Source: Flavobacteriales bacterium
GTDB lineage: Bacteria; Bacteroidota; Bacteroidia; Palsa-965
Length of the DNA: 64,000 nucleotides
Assembly: GCA_040377305.1 (NCBI GenBank)
Contig: JBEIPA010000014.1
Span: 32,001 to 96,000, forward strand
Direction: 5' to 3'
The first letter of the stretch is position 1. Every line of letters begins with the position of its first letter. A program made the position numbers and the translations under genes. Below, piece after piece: positions 54,482 through 61,307 of the stretch. The notes under the pieces are model-generated. The model worked only from the letters and a program-made list of their open reading frames with translations, was not told the origin of the DNA and did no database searches.

Positions 54482-55885
54482 TTACCCATCCATTCGCACG
54501 ATACGCGGACTGAACTTTCCTACGATGTCGACTAAATCAACTTGCGCCTCCATCACCTGAAAAATGTCTTTGTACGCATGTGGCGATTCATCCAGACCAC
54601 CACCGATTAACGTCACGTTATTTTCTTTCAGCACAGATTTCATCTCTGCATTCGTTACGTTTTTCATTGCTGCTGTACGCGACATTTTACGTCCCGCTCC
54701 ATGAGAAGCAGAGTTGATGGAAATGCTCGCACCTTTTCCGCGTACAATGAATCCCGGTGCAGTCATCGATCCCGGAATAATTCCGAGAACGCCTTTGCCG
54801 GCAGGTGTTGCACCTTTACGATGCACGATTACATCTTTGCCGTTGAATTTTTCTTTCCATGCAAAGTTGTGGTGGTTTTCTACCATCGCGATGGGTTCAA
54901 CACCAAGCGCAGCTGCAATCTTCTCGTGAATTTTGTGATGACACGCCGAAGCATAATCACCAGCGAGATTCATTGCAAGCCAATACTCTTGTCCTTCCTG
55001 AGTTGAAAGATCAAGCCACGCAAGATGTTTTGCTTCCTGCGGCAAACGACATTTCTCCATTGCCACTTTCGTGTAATGGTTCGCAATCGTTGCGCCAAGT
55101 CCGCGCGAACCGGAATGCGACAACAACGCGAGGTATCGACCTAATGGAAGATTGAACTCGTTGTTCTCATCGCTGATATCAACAACTCCGAATTCCACAA
55201 AGTGATTTCCCGAACCGGATGTTCCCATTTGCTTCACTGCTTTCAGCTGCAGACCTTTCAGCAATGGAATTTCATCGAACAACTTTCGGTCAGTCACTTC
55301 AAACTCTTTGTTCTCCTTGAACTCTTGTCCTGAACCAAAGAGTGTATTATCCGTAAGCACTTTGTAAAGTCCGCGCGAGTCGGTGTCGATGATCTCGTGC
55401 GGAGTCGGAAAAATACTCAGGCACATTCGGCAACCGATGTCGACGCCAACTCCATAAGGAATAATTGCGTTTTCCGTAGCGAGTACACCACCGATCGGCA
55501 ATCCATAACCCTGATGCGCATCCGGCATCAAAGCACCGGCAACTGCAACCGGCAAACGAATTGCCACATCCATTTGTTTACGCGCACCATCTTCGATCTG
55601 ATCTCCACCGTAAATTGCGTAAGATCCTTGTTCGATGCGCAATGCAATTTCGGGACCTTCCGCTTCTTTCGGCTTTTCCGTCAACGCATCCGCAATCGCA
55701 GCGAGGTTCGTGTCGTCGAGATAATCCGCAGGTGCAGCAAGAATATTTTTCAGCATCTCCATCACATCTTCACGTGATGATTTGCGGTAATACTTTTCAA
55801 TGATGTTGAGGGCAATTCCCACAACGCGTCCTTGTTTGTATCCAAGTTCGCGAAGGTGATCTCCGGTGATGTTTAATTTGTTCAT
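54482..55885 (-). CDS. rtcB: RNA 2',3'-cyclic phosphate/5'-OH ligase RtcB with N-terminal extension
   Basis: MPDAHQGYGLPIGGV, GVDIGC, GNHFVE, HSGSRG, HHN, HRKGATPA, PGSM, SHGAGR and DESPHAYK motifs. Confidence 0.96.
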   Translation of the reverse strand: MNKLNITGDHLRELGYKQGRVVGIALNIIEKYYRKSSREDVMEMLKNILAAPADYLDDTNLAAIADALTEKPKEAEGPEIALRIEQGSYAIYGGDQIEDGARKQMDVAIRLPVAVAGALMPDAHQGYGLPIGGVLATENAIIPYGVGVDIGCRMCLSIFPTPHEIIDTDSRGLYKVLTDNTLFGSGQEFKENKEFEVTDRKLFDEIPLLKGLQLKAVKQMGTSGSGNHFVEFGVVDISDENNEFNLPLGRYLALLSHSGSRGLGATIANHYTKVAMEKCRLPQEAKHLAWLDLSTQEGQEYWLAMNLAGDYASACHHKIHEKIAAALGVEPIAMVENHHNFAWKEKFNGKDVIVHRKGATPAGKGVLGIIPGSMTAPGFIVRGKGASISINSASHGAGRKMSRTAAMKNVTNAEMKSVLKENNVTLIGGGLDESPHAYKDIFQVMEAQVDLVDIVGKFSPRIVRMDG

Positions 55886-56514
55886 TTTACTAATTGTATT
55901 TCTTGTGTAACATAAATTCGAGGTTGTTCAACTTTATTTGTTGACTCGAATTTCATAGCGATGATTTCTTCGCAAGCGCGAGTAATGTGCACAACCATTT
56001 CATCGACATTAATATTTAATATCCCGTCTGCACGAAGAATTGTACCTCCACCTTGCGCATGTGAAAACCTGAGTTTGCCCTTTGGGGCAAAACAGTGAAC
56101 TAAGCCGCATCGCATTTCATCATATAGATCAAATGTTCCATTGGATTCTGCTTTTAAATACGCTCGATAATCCTTAAGAGATGCGAGATTCCGAATGGAG
56201 CGCTCAAAGTCCTCACGAACAGTGCCCGATTTATCCCAAACTGTTGGGGAATTTTCATTTATACACTTTCCGAAGAATTCAATTGCCGAACTCATGCAAA
56301 TTGCCCCGAGCCATGGCGATACTTTAACCACAGCTTGCATTTCGTCAATAAGTACAGTCCGCATAAATTGCTTAGTTGGAATGGGCATCTGCACAACAAA
56401 ATGTGATTTATCATCAGTAAAGCCAAAGACAACATTTTTCATTTGTTCATCCGTGAAAAGGTGCTTTCGTTGAAACTCTTGAAGGATCGATTGAACTGAT
56501 ATTTCTTTCATCAT
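55882..56514 (-). CDS. putative HEPN-domain protein
   Basis: SSAIEFFG helix followed by MRCGLVH (Rx4H); ATGA overlap with rtcB. Confidence 0.6.
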   Translation of the reverse strand: MMKEISVQSILQEFQRKHLFTDEQMKNVVFGFTDDKSHFVVQMPIPTKQFMRTVLIDEMQAVVKVSPWLGAICMSSAIEFFGKCINENSPTVWDKSGTVREDFERSIRNLASLKDYRAYLKAESNGTFDLYDEMRCGLVHCFAPKGKLRFSHAQGGGTILRADGILNINVDEMVVHITRACEEIIAMKFESTNKVEQPRIYVTQEIQLVK

Positions 56515-56552
56515 GATTATTCTATACTAATCAATTTACAAAATTTGTTTTG

Positions 56553-56623
56553 ACGACCGACAGGGATTCGAACCCCGATCCTCAGATTCGTATTCTGAGA
56601 TTCTTCCGTTGAACTATCGATCG
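56553..56623 (-). tRNA. tRNA-Arg(ACG), no encoded CCA
   Basis: CGATCGA/TCGGTCG acceptor, TCAGA-ATACGAA-TCTGA anticodon arm, GGTTCGAATCC T arm. Confidence 0.85.
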
Positions 56624-56630
56624 AAATACA

Positions 56631-56653
56631 GTGTCGGGATACGATCCCGACAC
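56631..56653. repeat. small palindrome GTGTCGGGAT-ACG-ATCCCGACAC (related copies near 58529-58553 and 58651-58671)
   Basis: 10-bp perfect stem; the motif recurs within this locus. Confidence 0.65.
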
Positions 56654-56656
56654 CTC

Positions 56657-56788
56657 ACAGGCAAAAAGCGAAAAGAGACTGTTTGCATTGCTCTACCACT
56701 GAGCTACACACAACTTTCGCTATGTGGCCGGATTCGAACCGGCGTCCCATGGATTGGAAGTCGAAGTAACTCTTTTCTACGGCACTGT
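56657..56788 (-). ncRNA. Y RNA of YrlA type (Y1): Ro-binding-like stem plus circularly permuted tRNA domain
   Basis: Order is T arm (GCCGGTTCGAATCCGGC), GAAA-capped acceptor stem (CACATAGC GAAA GTTGTGTG), D arm (TAGCTCAGTGGTAGAGC), enclosed by a terminal stem; lies near the TROVE gene. Confidence 0.88.
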
Positions 56789-56794
56789 TCATTG

Positions 56795-56868
56795 GGTGTT
56801 AGATCGGTTTCGATCCGATTACCTCTTGCTTCACAAGCAAGCGCTCTCCCGAGTGAGCTACAAACACC
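56795..56868 (-). tRNA. tRNA-His(GTG) with G-1:C73 and atypical T loop (ATCGAAA)
   Basis: CTTGC-TTGTGAA-GCAAG anticodon arm; 8-position acceptor with one mismatch. Confidence 0.8.
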
Positions 56869-56873
56869 GTGTT

Positions 56874-56957
56874 CAGTAGGCAGTTTGGCAGTAGTGCAGT
56901 TGGCAGTCAAAATATAATTCTCTGACTGCCTACTGCCCAACTGCTTACTGCCTACTG
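56874..56957. repeat. REP-like imperfect palindrome of GGCAGT units (second copy at 58336-58421)
   Basis: cagtaggcag...gactgcctactg arms; near-identical architecture in both copies. Confidence 0.75.
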
Positions 56958-56963
56958 TTCTTG

Positions 56964-57037
56964 TACTCTGTGTGGGATTCGAACCCACGTGATCTGGTCG
57001 AAAACCAGATATACTAGACCAACTATATGAACAGAGC
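56964..57037 (-). tRNA. tRNA-Glu(TTC), no CCA
   Basis: GCTCTGT/ACAGAGT acceptor, TCTGG-TTTTCGA-CCAGA anticodon arm, GTGGGTTCGAATCCCAC T arm. Confidence 0.85.
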
Positions 57038-57039
57038 CT

Positions 57040-57117
57040 GATTGATTTGCGGATGACGCGCCGGGTTCTCTCCTTTGGAGAGTTAGAGAGGCGCGGCGCG
57101 TAATCCGCAAATCAATC
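57040..57117. repeat. long spacer hairpin between tRNAs
   Basis: gattgatttgcggat.acgcgccg / cggcgcgt.atccgcaaatcaatc. Confidence 0.75.
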
Positions 57118-57122
57118 TTCAG

Positions 57123-57196
57123 TCGCGACAGCAGGATTCGAACCTACATCTTCTCCAGTCCAAGTGGAGAGGCTTAGCCAATTAGCCGACCTCGCG
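57123..57196 (-). tRNA. tRNA-Pro(TGG), no CCA
   Basis: CTCCA-CTTGGAC-TGGAG anticodon arm, GTAGGTTCGAATCCTGC T arm, C1:G72 and A73. Confidence 0.82.
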
Positions 57197-57285
57197 ATGT
57201 TGATTAGCTGATTTTTAATTTCTGATTTCTGATGCTGAAAGGTGTTACCCCAAGAGCTAATCAAAAATCAGCTAATCCTATTTAT

Positions 57286-57390
57286 TGTGAGGAAAAAATC
57301 ACAGAAAAGACGAAAGCGCCATCTTTCGATGTCAGGATTCGAACCTGTTTCTTCCTGCCACGAAGTATCTCTTCTGTTACGTCACTCACA
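57286..57390 (-). ncRNA. Y-like RNA Y2: shared scaffold plus T arm and GAAA mini-hairpin
   Basis: TGTGAG-TGACGTA-ACAGAAGAG-ATACTTCG...CAGGTTCGAATCCTG...CTTTTCTGT-GATTTTTTC-CTCACA. Confidence 0.78.
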
Positions 57391-57418
57391 AACTCAAAGA
57401 ACAAATTCAATTTCAAAA

Positions 57419-57513
57419 TAAGCGGGCAAAAGTCAATCAGAGTCTGCCGGGATTTGAACCCGCGTCTTTCGACTTTCTACCAAAGAAGTATCTCTGATTT
57501 ACGGCACCGTTTA
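57419..57513 (-). ncRNA. Y-like RNA Y3: shared scaffold plus D-loop-like TGGTAGA, GAAA hairpin and T arm
   Basis: TAAACGG-TGCCGTA-AATCAGAG-ATACTTC...CGGGTTCAAATCCCG...CTCTGATT-GACTTTTGC-CCGCTTA. Confidence 0.78.
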
Positions 57514-57523
57514 CTTTTAACTA

Positions 57524-58051
57524 TTATCTCGTCGGGATCTTCAATCCCATTTTCTTCATCGCAAGCAATGCTTCTGCATTTCCGATTGCGTCGTTGACCG
57601 GGTTGTGATCATGACGCGTTTTGCGAAACAATCGCTTCCACTCGCTGTTCAGTCCTCCATCCATTTTCATTCCACAATACAGATCACCGATTCGTCTGCC
57701 TGAAAATCCAAACGGATTTTTTCCCAGGTAGAAATGGAAGTAATAATTAATCCACTGCCAATCGAACGCGAGGTTATCGCTGATGAATATTGCTTTGCCG
57801 TCGGATGTTGCGTTCAACCATTCGGAGAAACGTTTCATCACTTCGGCGGGCTCCTCGAACGACTCGTGTTGCCCGCGTGTGAAACCACTTACTGCAAGTG
57901 CATCCGGAATCCATTCTTTGGAAATTGGTTGCGTCTTTCCGTAGAATGTTTTCGCGAGTGTGGGTTCTATCACCACTGCACCGAAGCAAACCATCGAATA
58001 TTTATTTGGGATGGGCCCATCGGCCTCTACATCCACTACTATGTAACTCAT
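57524..58051 (-). CDS. DEDDh 3'-5' exoribonuclease (Rv2179c/RNase AS-like)
   Basis: VDVEADGP, SDNLAFD and HNPVNDA motifs; likely start MSYIVVD. Confidence 0.85.
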   Translation of the reverse strand: MSYIVVDVEADGPIPNKYSMVCFGAVVIEPTLAKTFYGKTQPISKEWIPDALAVSGFTRGQHESFEEPAEVMKRFSEWLNATSDGKAIFISDNLAFDWQWINYYFHFYLGKNPFGFSGRRIGDLYCGMKMDGGLNSEWKRLFRKTRHDHNPVNDAIGNAEALLAMKKMGLKIPTR

Positions 58052-58083
58052 TTTGTTTTTGTTTTTAATCAATTTAATAATTT

Positions 58084-58156
58084 AAGCTGGCAACAAACTC
58101 GCAGAGGTTTTGGTCTAATTAACAGTTAGAAGTAACTCTGCAATACGGCACAGCTT
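58084..58156 (-). ncRNA. Y-like RNA Y4: minimal scaffold with only a short hairpin insert
   Basis: AAGCTG-TGCCGTA-TTGCAGAG-TTACTTC...CTCTGCGA-GTTTGTTGC-CAGCTT. Confidence 0.75.
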
Positions 58157-58214
58157 GCCGATGTGCCGATTTCCAATATGCCAATATGCCGATTGGAAAT
58201 ACCTCAATAAAATT

Positions 58215-58332
58215 CGGAAGCAAAAAACGATTCGGGTGGGGCGTCGCAATGAGGATTTGCACCTCTTCCTGGTTTTTACATCAGGACCCTTGCCCCCTGT
58301 CGAGCGAAGTATCCCGGCTCTACGGCATTCCG
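58215..58332 (-). ncRNA. Y-like RNA Y5: scaffold plus D-armless tRNA-like insert
   Basis: CGGAA-TGCCGTA-GAGCCGGG-ATACTTCG...TCCTGA/CCAGGA hairpin, GAGG-TGCAAAT-CCTC T arm...CCCGAATC-GTTTTTTGC-TTCCG. Confidence 0.75.
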
Positions 58333-58335
58333 TTT

Positions 58336-58421
58336 CAGTAGGCCGTTTGGCAGGCGTTCAGTAGGCAGTCAAAATTTATTCCTAATGACTGCCGACTGCA
58401 CTACCGCACTACTGCCTACTG
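58336..58421. repeat. REP-like GGCAGT palindrome, second copy
   Basis: Similar to 56874-56957. Confidence 0.72.
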
Positions 58422-58426
58422 ATTAA

Positions 58427-58646
58427 ACAACGGTAACTGGCAACAAGTCTGCTTTCTGCTTTCACAGAATACGGCCGTCCTATTTCTGTATTGCTACAGA
58501 CAGTTGACTGGTAATCATCATCCGCATGGTGTCAGGATCTGAAATCCTGATACTGCGCACTCAGATTAACGTTCGCGAACCACAGTTACCCGTGCATCAC
58601 TACCTTAGGACCGTTATCGAAGTATGACCCGTTTACGACACGTTGT
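58427..58646 (-). ncRNA. Y-like RNA Y6: scaffold plus about 170-nt insert containing 23S rRNA H69/H70-like sequence
   Basis: ACAACG-TGTCGTA-AACGGGTC-ATACTTCG-ATAACGGTCCTAAGGTAG...CGGCCGTA...GACTTGTT-GCCAGTTAC-CGTTGT. Confidence 0.75.
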
Positions 58647-58686
58647 GTGATGTCAGGATCCTATCCTGACAGTGCACATAATTTTT

Positions 58687-58696
58687 TCAAAGAACG
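58687..58696 (-). promoter_or_regulatory. boxA-like antitermination motif (CGTTCTTTGA); second copy at 57394-57403
   Basis: GTTCTTTGA occurs ahead of or inside the ncRNA blocks that follow TROVE and the exonuclease. Confidence 0.5.
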
Positions 58697-58766
58697 TTTG
58701 TACTAACCAAGCCGTCGGGCGACCTCTCCTTCAGTGCAATTTCCGAAGGAGAGGCGTAGCCGTAAA

Positions 58767-60281
58767 CTACAACTCGAGTTGTTTTATCATCGCGATTGCA
58801 TCTGTACCGTTTTCTGCAGCATACAATACGTCGAACACTTTATCTGACCAGCCCGCGATGAGTGTTACATCGTCGCGCTGCACACTGATTGGTGTGTTAC
58901 CGTAACCTGCGAGGTCGAACAAGTACAGTTTCGCCATTGGCGCAATCTGTTTGTATTCTTTCCACGCCGTCTGCAACGAATCACCGTCAGCTTTGGTATT
59001 CCACATCTGGCAGTCAGTGAACATCATCACTTTGTCCATCACAACATTGCGCTGAACAAGATCTTTGATCACCAGGTAACCATTTGTGGCGTAACCAACT
59101 TCACCTTCCCGCTTGTAGTACTCATCAACATTCGCAAGTACTCCACGGTTAGGCATGTTGATTACCTTCCAGCGATCTCCGAACATTCCGGAAACCACTC
59201 GTTCACACTTGCTCTGCATCAGCATACCCAGTACCAGACCGATATCGAACAAATACACTTTGCTCTTCGCCGAGATTGGTTTCTGCATTGAACCCGAAAC
59301 GTCACACGCAATCAACACACGTGTTTTGTAATCGAATCCGCTGATGTTTTTCGCTGAAGCTACAATTGCATCTTCCAGCGCGTTAAGTATCATCGACACG
59401 TAATCAGCTTTCAGCACTTTCACTTCACGGTATGCAGACAGGAAACGGAATGGCAACTGCTTCGATTTCGCAACCTGGTTTGCATCAGAAAGCGTATCAC
59501 ACACTTTTTTGATTGCATCCCATGATACACCCGCTTCAATCATGTTACGGATGTTACGCAACATCGCCATGTATCCCAGCTTACCGCTGAAGATCAGTTC
59601 TTCCCATTTCGCACGAACCGCAAGCTCTTTTGCTTTTGCATCAGCGAATTTTTGCTGACCCAAAGCAGAAAGTTCAGTTTCCCAGGTATAAGCAACAGAC
59701 AGCTCTTTCGCAGCGATCTTGTTGAAGACTGCTTGCTGTTCATCACTTTTCGCTTTCGGGTGAACAAGGAACAATGCATCACGCAACGTTACTGCCGCTT
59801 CACGGTTGTATTTCGAGAACTGGTATTCATCAAAACGATTGAACGCCTTTGCGAGTCCTTTCTGTACCTGTTTCGAAAGCTTGTTCAGTTTCTTAGTTCC
59901 CGAACGGTTGTTCGCCAGTTGGTAGTAAGCCAGAAGCTCAGTGATCTCATCAGCACGCTGAACGACACCGTTCACCGCTTTGGATACAACTATATTTCCG
60001 GAGTTACGTTTTGCAAGTTCGACTGCAAGCACCTGTGGAATAGAACGCATGTACATTTTGTTACGTGCATACACCGCAAGCTTCGCCACGAATTCAGCAT
60101 CTGTCTTCTCCATGAGATCCACGATACGTTGAAGACGCTCGTTTCCTTTCTCATAGAACGAATCGCTCAGTCCTGCGGTTACTACCGCTGAATACAGTTC
60201 GAGCTCAGGAGTCATTGCGAATGCTTTTGCGCCTTCGTAATTAGTGACTGCTGTTTTACGTTTGAAGATGTTGAATTTCAT
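58767..60281 (-). CDS. rsr: TROVE domain protein (Ro60/Rsr orthologue) with vWA domain
   Basis: NYEGAKAF, YARNKMYMRS, TWE, GYMAMLRNIRN, QLPFRFLSAY, MIDAS DVSGSM and AGWSD motifs. Confidence 0.93.
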   Translation of the reverse strand: MKFNIFKRKTAVTNYEGAKAFAMTPELELYSAVVTAGLSDSFYEKGNERLQRIVDLMEKTDAEFVAKLAVYARNKMYMRSIPQVLAVELAKRNSGNIVVSKAVNGVVQRADEITELLAYYQLANNRSGTKKLNKLSKQVQKGLAKAFNRFDEYQFSKYNREAAVTLRDALFLVHPKAKSDEQQAVFNKIAAKELSVAYTWETELSALGQQKFADAKAKELAVRAKWEELIFSGKLGYMAMLRNIRNMIEAGVSWDAIKKVCDTLSDANQVAKSKQLPFRFLSAYREVKVLKADYVSMILNALEDAIVASAKNISGFDYKTRVLIACDVSGSMQKPISAKSKVYLFDIGLVLGMLMQSKCERVVSGMFGDRWKVINMPNRGVLANVDEYYKREGEVGYATNGYLVIKDLVQRNVVMDKVMMFTDCQMWNTKADGDSLQTAWKEYKQIAPMAKLYLFDLAGYGNTPISVQRDDVTLIAGWSDKVFDVLYAAENGTDAIAMIKQLEL

Positions 60282-60327
60282 GACTGTTTGTTTTAATTGT
60301 TATTGACGCTGCAAATGTTTTACTCAT

Positions 60328-60348
60328 CTACGCAATGGTCTTGCGCAG
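60328..60348. promoter_or_regulatory. palindromic operator CTACGCAA-N5-TTGCGCAG upstream of the TROVE gene
   Basis: Matches 61490-61510; lies 8 nt from a -7-like box AACATTTG (60312-60319, minus). Confidence 0.72.
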
Positions 60349-60434
60349 TTCGATTTATTTTAACTTTTTGTTTTAATCGCCTGATTTTCAGTTGGCATTA
60401 ATTCGTTTTTTCAATCGCAACATTTATTGCGGCG

Positions 60435-60507
60435 TTGGAAAGGAAGGGCTCGAACCTTCGACCTTGTGCGTATAAGGCACGTGCTCTTACCACTGAGCTA
60501 CTCTCCA
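60435..60507 (-). tRNA. tRNA-Ile(TAT), rare anticodon, no CCA
   Basis: TGGAGAG/CTTTCCA acceptor, GTGC-CTTATAC-GCAC anticodon arm, GAAGGTTCGAGCCCTTC T arm. Confidence 0.85.
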
Positions 60508-60514
60508 AGTCTTG

Positions 60515-60586
60515 CGGCGCGGATTGGACTTGAACCAATATAATCTCCCTTAACAGGGGAGAGCTCTACCATTGAGCTACCAGGCC
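60515..60586 (-). tRNA. tRNA-Asn(GTT), no CCA
   Basis: CTCCC-CTGTTAA-GGGAG anticodon arm, ATTGGTTCAAGTCCAAT T arm, G73. Confidence 0.85.
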
Positions 60587-60591
60587 ATTTG

Positions 60592-60664
60592 CGGTAACGA
60601 TGGGATTCGAACCCACAACTTTCCGATAGACAATCGGACGCTCTAGCCGTTGAACTACGCTACC
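60592..60664 (-). tRNA. tRNA-Asp(GTC), no CCA
   Basis: GGTAGCG/CGTTACC acceptor, TCCGA-TTGTCTA-TCGGA anticodon arm, G73. Confidence 0.87.
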
Positions 60665-60669
60665 ATTTG

Positions 60670-60742
60670 TGGACAAGGAAGGAATTGAACCTTCATCTTC
60701 TGATCTTCAGTCAGCCGCATTCACCGCGTTTGCTACCTGTCC
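60670..60742 (-). tRNA. tRNA-Phe(GAA), no CCA
   Basis: GGACAGG/CTTGTCC acceptor, CTGA-CTGAAGA-TCAG anticodon arm, GAAGGTTCAATTCCTTC T arm. Confidence 0.8.
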
Positions 60743-60748
60743 GTTTTG

Positions 60749-60822
60749 TTGACCCACCAGGGCTCGAACCTGGAACCCCCACTTTAAAAGAGCGGTGCAT
60801 CTAACCATTGAGCTATGGATCA
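60749..60822 (-). tRNA. tRNA-Lys(TTT), no CCA
   Basis: TGATCCA/TGGGTCA acceptor, CCGCT-CTTTTAA-AGTGG anticodon arm, CCAGGTTCGAGCCCTGG T arm. Confidence 0.86.
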
Positions 60823-60834
60823 ATATTTCTTCGC

Positions 60835-60891
60835 TTGTCCTCCTTCGGCAAAGCCTGTGCTGAGCGAAGTCGAAGTGCTCAGTCTGACAAG
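60835..60891. repeat. Bacteroidota REP-like element (CTGAGCGAAGTCGAAG); complementary half CTTCGACTACGCTCAG near 60981-61010
   Basis: The two halves are complementary and bracket tRNA-Gln. Confidence 0.55.
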
Positions 60892-60894
60892 TCG

Positions 60895-60965
60895 TTGTCG
60901 GAAATGGATTTGAACCACTATAGCCAGATTCAAACTCTGGTGTCCTACCATTAGACGATCCGACA
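60895..60965 (-). tRNA. tRNA-Gln(TTG), no CCA
   Basis: TGTCGGA/TCCGACA acceptor (U1:A72), CCAGA-GTTTGAA-TCTGG anticodon arm. Confidence 0.86.
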
Positions 60966-61011
60966 TTCAGTGTGTTTTCTTGTCATTCTTCGACTACGCT
61001 CAGTATGACAA

Positions 61012-61043
61012 TAAAAAAACCCGGTCGTGTGCGGACCGGGTCT
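61012..61043 (-). terminator. attenuator terminator 2
   Basis: AGACCCGGTC-CGCACAC-GACCGGG-TTTTTTT; the 5' arm can alternatively pair with GTGGACCG (61081-61088). Confidence 0.8.
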
Positions 61044-61064
61044 AACAAATCAGTTCAACTGATT

Positions 61065-61154
61065 TCAGTTATGACAACATCGGTCCACGAATTTTCCTTT
61101 CTGAAAATCTCGTTCGCTAAAATTGGGCAAGGCTATATAACTATGTTTCTTCAT
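61065..61154 (-). CDS. putative leader peptide 2 MKKHSYIALPNFSERDFQKGKFVDRCCHN
   Basis: 29-codon uORF containing the antiterminator and ending about 20 nt before terminator 2. Confidence 0.7.
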   Translation of the reverse strand: MKKHSYIALPNFSERDFQKGKFVDRCCHN

Positions 61155-61254
61155 GGTGTTTCTTTCTCTTCAACTTTTTTATTGTCAGGCCGAGTAGTCA
61201 TTGCAGTCTGCGGAGCAACTTGTGCTTGAAGATCGACGTACCGAGGTCGGGCAA

Positions 61255-61284
61255 TAAAAAAGCCCCGAATCTCTCCGGGGCTTT
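61255..61284 (-). terminator. attenuator terminator 1
   Basis: AAAGCCCCGGA-GAGA-TTCGGGGC-TTTTTT; the 5' arm can alternatively pair with CGGGGT (61312-61317). Confidence 0.8.
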
Positions 61285-61307
61285 ACTTCAGTTATATCCT
61301 AAAGCAA

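Follow-up and report, generated by a model that had tools for sequence, protein, structure and literature searches.

What does a small RNA gene beside a Ro60 gene in a flavobacterial genome carry within its scaffold? This question arises from a stretch of 64,000 nucleotides (the window) of a Flavobacteriales bacterium (assembly GCA_040377305.1, contig JBEIPA010000014.1, positions 32,001 to 96,000), in which an earlier note, made from the sequence alone, had proposed a Y-like RNA with a circularly permuted mimic of helix 69 (H69) of the 23S rRNA. According to our model, positions 58424..58649 of the minus strand encode a structured RNA of about 200-226 nucleotides (nt; 226 nt for the whole modelled molecule), which consists of a two-step scaffold stem and an rRNA-like payload. 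We read it as a new Y-RNA variant with an effector module that mimics rRNA instead of tRNA. All coordinates of this RNA and its surroundings refer to the window and, unless stated otherwise, to the minus strand.

The identity with 23S rRNA begins directly behind the scaffold motif. The 18-mer ATAACGGTCCTAAGGTAG (58617..58600), followed by TGATGCACG, is identical to 23S rRNA and comprises three H69 loop bases, the H69 3' strand ACGGTC (58609-58614), the C-TAA-G mini-loop (58604-58608) and GTAG of the linker. The H69 5' strand GGCCGT lies at 58471..58476, reads CGGCCGTA with one flanking base on each side (58470-58477) and pairs with 58609-58614. Only two fragments of the 23S rRNA of the source genome itself were found, at the start of contig C9 and the end of contig C17, and its H69 region is unassembled; we therefore used the 23S gene of a genome of the same genus (L009, confirmed as large subunit (LSU) rRNA by Rfam) as reference, which reads CGGCGGCCGTAACTATAACGGTCCTAAGGTAGCGAAATTCC / CGGCGGCCGTAACTATAACGGTCCTAAGGTAGCGAAA in this region. 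In the structure line of the Rfam LSU model, GGCCGU pairs with ACGGUC around the loop AACUAUA, followed by the C-UAA-G mini-loop and the single-stranded GUAGC. Both H69 strands, the loop bases and the C-UAA-G/GUAG linker are thus identical to 23S rRNA, and the strands can pair.

All strings named in the earlier note were located by script at the positions it gave on the minus strand, and its claim that the 3' half of H69 comes first and the 5' half last holds against both the L009 gene and the Rfam structure line. Since the strand order is inverted relative to 23S rRNA, the RNA is not a plain 23S fragment; a collinear match to the LSU model RF02541 was absent from 56400-61300 at E-values up to 10. 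The neighbouring 23S stretch AAATTCCTT (L009) is not copied in the RNA.

Folding supports the proposal that the two halves pair and rebuild an H69 opened at its loop. RNAalifold, applied to 14 payloads from several phyla, predicts a long-range H69-like stem together with a GNRA hairpin; the stem pairs in 96.4% of 84 cells (14 RNAs), is closed in 13 of 15 payloads folded without constraint and is included in the minimum free energy structure of the window RNA (-70.8 kcal/mol, z -2.36). The alternative pairing GTCCTA/TAGGAC, which had been mentioned as well, is present but less well kept, in 72.6% of the 84 cells. For the complete molecule, a nine-helix model was paired in 96% of 327 cells in seven full-length orthologues, with eight compensatory pairs, compared to 31-45% for slid controls. 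The expectation that both H69 halves would be conserved with covariation came true in its first part only: both halves are conserved, but changes in the H69-like stem are one-sided (U-G to U-A). The near-invariance of its 5' strand is partly due to the fact that most members were found through it. An invariant mimic stem beside covarying helices is what mimicry at the sequence level predicts, although the pairing is not thereby proved.

To what extent could such a likeness arise by chance? Exact 18-mers common to the genome (5.18 Mb) and the L009 23S rRNA occur at one locus, the H69-like RNA, versus 0.42 expected, and exact 17-mers at three loci versus 1.7 expected, the two true 23S fragments at contig ends being left out of these counts. 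The 18-mer by itself is within chance genome-wide, and the case therefore rests on conservation and on a model search. For the latter we used a covariance model (R1) built only from 21 family RNAs, which covers 62 positions from the loop bases to a conserved CGAA block. In 150 other genomes of the phylum of the window, R1 had matches in 64, always end to end (positions 1-62), with 29-34 bits over 52-72 nt versus 68.5 bits for the window RNA. All 29 loci fetched from these matches were true 23S genes (blastn against verified 23S). The alignment sets the family string CGCGAACG..TAATC on 23S CACGAATGGTCTAAT, with the hairpin skipped, and the family block CGCGAA falls on 23S CACGAA, which follows H71. 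The family profile matches 23S rRNA and nothing else, which is the strongest quantitative support for mimicry.

Conservation was followed among relatives and across phyla. Using blastn, the RNA was found in four of 60 relatives, so that, together with the window, it is present in five of the 12 genomes with a TROVE orthologue (one of which, G012, is unpublished). As the earlier note required of homologues, all five orthologues keep the 18-mer block, with at most one change, and its 5' half partner; the TROVE loci of the remaining seven of 12, however, are without any such RNA. In these relatives the Y-RNA array varies, and the H69-like RNA is one of its optional cassettes. Beyond them, a scan for the 17-mer ACGGTCCTAAGGTAGTG in one genome per species yielded 26 loci, which were sorted by reading into three 23S genes, seven unrelated or unclear loci and 16 RNAs of the H69-like kind from Bacteroidota, Planctomycetota, Myxococcota and one Rivularia cyanobacterium. 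The same scan of metagenomes added 12 H69-like RNAs among 63 loci, the rest being mostly 23S variants, and none of five loci in viral contigs had family features. The 23S records L016, L047 and L090 matched the pattern because they are interrupted there, right after ...CCTAAGGTA (GGTA), by inserts whose first bases, GTGCC or GTGTC, resemble those of a group II intron.

The whole H69 loop is kept in nine RNAs, with exact runs shared with 23S rRNA of 25-26 nt in eight and 15 nt in one; eight whole-loop RNAs read GTAACTATA ahead of the pattern, exactly like 23S. In other members, G(G/A)CCG(T/C/A), often as GGCCGTAA or GGCCGTAAC, follows 80-140 nt downstream of the block. The scaffold joins the H69 loop at a place that differs among members and lies between H68 and H69 in the loop-keeping class; rRNA-like loop bases stay on both sides of it. 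Five further members were recovered by covariance model, with the pattern not required, from 150 other genomes of the class of the Myxococcus genome; these read GGTAGCAA or GGTAGCGA, closer still to 23S. The family is rare: it was found in 5/150 other genomes in this one class and in 0/150 in each of three phylum samples.

Inside its closing helix, the H69-like stem, the payload has the GNRA hairpin P4, a central domain with P5 and P6, and the hairpin P7. P4 (CACGG-GTAA-CTGTG, 58581..58594) shows compensatory changes in four of five pairs in 14 RNAs and is followed by the block CGCGAA (58572..58577), conserved across the family. The central domain (58510..58570) consists of P5 (GTTAATC, 58564-58570, with GATTACC, 58510-58516; 85.7% paired), P6 (58554-58557 with 58523-58526; two compensatory pairs) and an extra hairpin (58532-58550), which is absent from six of seven orthologues and from RNA contigs of soil samples. 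P7 is the hairpin TCTGTA-GCAA-TACAGA (58485..58500; two compensatory pairs, 100% paired), and AATAGGAC (58477-58484) connects it to the H69 5' strand. Between this strand and the scaffold helix P2, a further hairpin, P8 (TTCTGT-GAAA-GCAGAA, 58454..58469), is 100% paired with three compensatory pairs.

Does the mimicry reach beyond H69? The GNRA hairpin comes after the linker, where 23S rRNA has H71, and the CGAA block comes next in both RNAs. Two stretches of the Rfam consensus, cgCcUGCCC (H67 5' strand and start of H68) and gGuaAACGGC-GgCCGUAA, correspond by position to strings in the members from myxobacteria and cyanobacteria: these read CGCGTGCCC in place of the former, at the end of the central helix, and GGTAAGAGC-GGCCGTAA in place of the latter, behind the last hairpin; the central domain of the window RNA is more diverged than theirs. 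P4 may be called H71-like, and we infer, from position and from short motifs picked after the fact, that the payload adopts the fold of the domain IV junction H67-H71. In this reading, H71 would be represented by the GNRA hairpin and H67 by the CGAA-closed central helix, and the hairpin ahead of UAAGAGC/AAUAGGAC would be a stub of H68. By these motifs, imitation of the whole four-way junction H67/H68/H69/H71 is possible. The H68-like echoes that the earlier note had seen between the two halves were at chance level in local alignments against shuffles and, together with first-impression H72/H73 echoes, were dropped as evidence. Smith-Waterman scores of the sequence after the 17-mer against 23S rRNA were 19-26 in 18 of 18 family members, with a shuffle mean of about 21.

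The scaffold consists of the stems P1 and P2 around an internal loop, with GTGTCGTAA on one side and TGCCAG on the other. Its motif string GTGTCGTAA-ACGGGTC-A-TACTTCG (58641..58618) lies directly upstream of the 18-mer. In P1, ACAACG (58641..58646) pairs with CGTTGT (58427..58432), with 100% pairing in seven sequences and one-sided variation in two pairs; in P2, ACGGGTC (58626..58632) pairs with GACTTGT (58443..58449), again with 100% pairing and one-sided variation (GC/GU/AU) in four of seven pairs. The element GTGTCGTAA (58633..58641), identified by pattern search, is a copy of the 5' motif of six Y-like RNAs and a candidate Ro60 contact. Its part GTCGTAA (58633-58639) is one letter off the motif GNCGAA(N0-1)G, which PMC4201824 gives as the 5' motif within the terminal stem of bacterial Y RNAs, and the terminal stems P1 and P2 are themselves supported. 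The second conserved block, TACTTCG (58618..58624), is found in all six Y-like RNAs, and TGCCAG (58437-58442), which follows the P2 3' strand, resembles the 3' consensus of Rfam YrlA.

These six Y-like RNAs form a cluster at 56659-58649 with the common 5' motif GTGCCGTA-N5/6-GRGWTACTTCG (five matches in a pattern search versus 0.03 expected; a sixth copy at ~57390 was read by eye). Their 5' ends lie near 58641, 58328, 58151, 57507, 57390 and 56785, and the H69-like RNA is the first one after the TROVE gene. As to the payloads, one is rRNA-like, one RNA is almost payload-free (58072-58151), two carry a single T-arm-like hairpin and one is YrlA-like: the RNA at 56659-56776 has a sub-threshold Rfam YrlA match of 39.8 bits against a cut-off of 69. 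The proposal of a Y-like RNA is supported by its context, namely this neighbour, the 5' motif shared with five neighbours and the TROVE gene 120 nt upstream on the same strand. The second RNA of the array (58215-58328) holds the T-arm-like hairpin GAGGTGCAAATCCTC and is the most widely kept, with a close copy after TROVE in most relatives, including those without the H69-like RNA. Two long imperfect hairpins of GGCAGTA-like heptad repeats (58335-58422 and 56873-56957), 84-86% alike, lie between the RNA genes and may be processing or termination signals; similar repeats are present in one relative (L113). A box CGTTCTTTGAAAAAA at 58682-58696, 30-40 nt upstream of the first Y-like RNA and at the equal position in nine of ten TROVE loci inspected in relatives, is by its placement a candidate promoter element of the array.

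The RNA is the centre of an island that spans 53.3 to 61 kb of the window. Its TROVE/Ro60 gene (58767..60281, 504 amino acids; Pfam TROVE 2.4e-30) also has a Ro60 vWA match of 2.6e-5, which is under the Pfam cut-off for that domain. The gene ends 120 nt (58767 to ~58649) ahead of the RNA, which lies downstream on the same strand and hence within the ~2 kb of TROVE, same strand, that mark Y RNAs; the same is true for four orthologous loci. An open reading frame-free stretch of 560 nt adjoins the TROVE gene, directly behind whose stop codon a strong hairpin CCTCTCCTTCGG...GAAGGAGAGG (58723-58754) shows compensatory changes in relatives and has no T-run behind it. Downstream of the RNA follow the further Y-like RNAs and the gene of a 3'-5' exoribonuclease of the Rv2179c type (57524-58072), and an RtcB RNA ligase is encoded at 54482..55885 (Pfam RtcB 2.9e-81). 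Six tRNA genes are located at 60434-60965 and four more within 56552-57196; these ten (Arg, His, Glu, Pro, Ile-TAT, Asn, Asp, Phe, Lys and Gln) could be a spare set for use after tRNA damage. A WYL-WCX regulator gene lies upstream in divergent orientation. The core of TROVE, RNAs and RtcB is kept in relatives, with RtcB in seven of eight relatives' islands (tblastn); the gene content common to the window and these eight islands is WYL, TROVE and RtcB only. A search for a partner gene by co-occurrence was given up, as no island gene tracks the H69-like RNA in the eight relatives. Phage records gave no blastn match to 58200-58800.

In Bacteroidota and Planctomycetota, the RNA is linked to TROVE, YrlA-like RNAs, tRNAs and RNA-repair genes. 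In a Chitinophagaceae genome, TROVE, the RNA, Band-7, an S24 peptidase, an RNase T-type exonuclease and RlaP follow in a row, and in a metagenome-assembled genome (MAG) of Thermoguttaceae the order is Band-7, group II intron, RNA and TROVE; the distance from RNA to TROVE is ~1-2 kb in both. YrlA-like matches lie beside the RNA in these two lineages (L024 and L031; 40.5 and 49.5 bits), and tRNA genes beside three other loci. The intron upstream of the Thermoguttaceae RNA (Rfam 64.2 bits, reverse transcriptase) raised the idea that the RNA is an intron remnant, of which we saw no sign. In a Rivularia MAG (L021/L039, 1284-7774), the neighbours are an HNH endonuclease, an alr0857-family protein, a 477-amino-acid protein, a short EF-Ts paralogue and an RNA ligase; as a lead only, the 477-amino-acid protein may be a divergent Ro60, its nearest Atlas clusters including TROVE families at 0.95. 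Using tblastn with four Ro60-type proteins, nothing convincing was found for a hidden Ro60 near the myxobacterial and Zavarzinella loci, and NCBIfam and Pfam were blank for the unknown neighbours. The myxobacterial RNAs (L162-L167) have a long GC-rich terminal stem with GAGTCCGACAC, resembling the vertebrate-type Ro60 site. A radical-SAM gene was rejected as partner, as it lies downstream of the RNA in only three closely related myxobacterial loci.

What could such an RNA be for? Our preferred explanation, to which we give a probability of about 0.5, is that the Y-like scaffold and the circularly permuted H69 payload form a YrlA-like modular adaptor, which tethers Ro60 to a reader of this region of the 50S subunit. 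An adaptor is favoured because the Y RNAs Yrn1 and YrlA combine a Ro60-binding stem with an effector module (PMC4201824; 10.1101/312249), and by analogy the same division may apply here. We infer that Ro60 binds the scaffold and that either a protein or the small subunit uses the module as its handle. The scaffold stem would bind Ro60, the rRNA-like module would bind the partner that normally reads this face of the 50S subunit, and the adaptor would tether Ro60, and likely also the RNA-repair enzymes of the island, to that partner. A role as guide, which the earlier note had listed next to decoy and adaptor, is unlikely: the RNA is of rRNA sense and thus lacks complementarity to the rRNA. A broader version of the adaptor seems possible but doubtful: that at least four phyla carry a miniature of the 50S inter-subunit junction (H67-H71, centred on H69) as an address label, which brings Ro60 and RtcB or exonucleases to ribosomal particles or to an H69-inspecting factor and works without Ro60 in myxobacteria.

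Several observations weigh against a ribosome-directed adaptor. Within the relatives, the RNA is optional, being present at only five of 12 TROVE loci among 61 relatives, and no protein gene of the islands of eight relatives co-varies with it. All six myxobacterial carriers are without a TROVE match and have unrelated genes as neighbours, and in two further carrier genomes TROVE is on another contig. The assignments of H67, H68 and H71 were made after the fact, as described above. As for expression, three soil metatranscriptome runs have one whole contig each of 152-158 nt that covers 58447/9-58622/30 at a likeness of at least 85% with nothing beside it; like the relatives, these contigs lack the 24-nt insert hairpin. 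They speak weakly in favour of a separate and abundant small RNA in relatives, from which they come, but represent small shares only and could stem from DNA carry-over. The likeness itself has its limits, too: the chance level of the 18-mer, the lack of any compensatory change in the H69-like stem of 14 RNAs, and a pairwise likeness to 23S rRNA beyond the H69 block that is not above shuffles in any of the 18 family members. These last three points would also fit a stable module that converged on rRNA or was copied from it without reference to the ribosome, or a processing signal of a polycistronic tRNA/Y-RNA transcript. We consider this very unlikely, since the bases kept across four phyla are exactly those of 23S rRNA while other helices covary freely, the runs of 25-26 nt include loop bases needless for a mere stem, and the family model picks 23S rRNA and nothing else in other genomes.

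The main rival, unlikely in our judgement and still ahead of the other alternatives, is a decoy or pseudo-substrate: the RNA would imitate H69 so that an enzyme acting on this part of 23S rRNA binds or attacks the RNA and spares the ribosome, or so that damage to the RNA is sensed, with Ro60 mainly stabilising it. Such an enzyme could serve in modification or be a toxin with which a competitor or phage cleaves rRNA. No toxin is known to cut within the copied 18-26 nt, the adjoining stretch AAATTCCTT is left uncopied, and without strong induction a few decoy copies would be a poor match for thousands of ribosomes. On the other hand, the RNA has the same sense as rRNA and keeps the loop bases as well as the stem, its patchy distribution (0/150 in three phylum samples, 5/150 in one class) is typical of conflict systems, and the island combines spare tRNAs, tRNA-like RNAs, RtcB and a 3'-5' exoribonuclease. 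In other phyla the RNA sits with Band-7, RlaP and RNA ligase, gene sets which 10.1101/312249 ties to RNA damage and repair, and YrlA itself is described in PMC4201824 as a substrate of tRNA-modifying enzymes. Quite unlikely is a third possibility, in which the conserved block is directed at Ro60 itself, as a second contact or as a gate on the surface that binds misfolded rRNA, and the H69 likeness reflects the recognition by Ro60. The block holds GGTCCTA, one letter from the GGUCCGA contacted by Ro60 in vertebrate Y RNAs (PMC4201824), and the Deinococcus Ro60 takes part in the maturation of 23S rRNA, with Y RNA as its inhibitor (PMC4201824; 10.1101/312249). The window RNA, however, already has the scaffold motif common to its five neighbours, the 23S identity reaches 25-26 nt in the family, far past a 7-mer, and in the myxobacterial carriers, where no TROVE gene was detected, GTCCGA lies in a separate stem.

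If the adaptor reading holds, its meaning goes beyond this locus. The known bacterial Y RNAs are tRNA mimics, and a module that copies rRNA, namely the best conserved bridge element of the large subunit, would make the Y scaffold a general carrier of look-alikes of translation RNAs; Ro60/RtcB islands would then address ribosomes as well as tRNAs. Should the address-label version be true, this would be the first ribosome-directed Y ribonucleoprotein, and its RNA the first small one to pose as part of the large subunit. As the copied bases are few, invariant and easily mutated, the partner can be fished with wild type and mutant baits. No Rfam 15 family matched the RNA (E up to 10) or eight other loci (E up to 0.01), and the full-text literature searched, with subscription journals outside its coverage, held no report of an rRNA-like Y RNA, which qualifies the RNA for registration as a new family that spans Bacteroidota, Planctomycetota, Myxococcota and Cyanobacteria.

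How does the RNA compare to known systems? The leaders of ribosomal protein (r-protein) operons are likewise short RNAs that imitate a protein-binding site of rRNA. These mimics are cis-acting 5' leaders of r-protein mRNAs and imitate r-protein sites, whereas the window RNA is a small RNA in its own right, encoded in an RNA-repair island and not as the 5' leader of a gene for an r-protein or an rRNA-modifying enzyme; the copied H69 region is largely free of r-proteins. Closer are Yrn1 and Yrn2 of Deinococcus radiodurans and the metazoan Y RNAs, which join a Ro60-bound stem to a module that tethers an effector, PNPase in Deinococcus (PMC4201824; 10.1101/312249). As with Yrn1/Yrn2, there are several Y RNAs per locus, and those of Deinococcus are co-transcribed with tRNAs; the effector modules of Yrn1/Yrn2 and the metazoan Y RNAs, in contrast, are loops or partial tRNA-like arms, and a likeness to rRNA is reported for none of them in the literature searched.

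The closest counterpart is the bacterial YrlA (RF02553), a Y RNA with a Ro60-binding stem and a tRNA-mimicking effector module according to PMC4201824 and 10.1101/312249. The differences concern the 5' motif, GTCGTAA in the window RNA versus GNCGAA in YrlA, the binding of Ro60, which is a prediction for the window RNA, and the module: neither an Rfam YrlA nor a tRNA match was found on 58424-58649 at E up to 10, and what is copied is the H69 region of 23S rRNA instead of a tRNA. In common, both RNAs are same-strand neighbours of Ro60/TROVE, frequently together with RtcB, and a YrlA-like RNA is found in the same cluster as the window RNA as well as beside its relatives in L024 and L031. Both are also modular: a scaffold stem carries an effector module, and this module is a circularly permuted copy of a cellular RNA.

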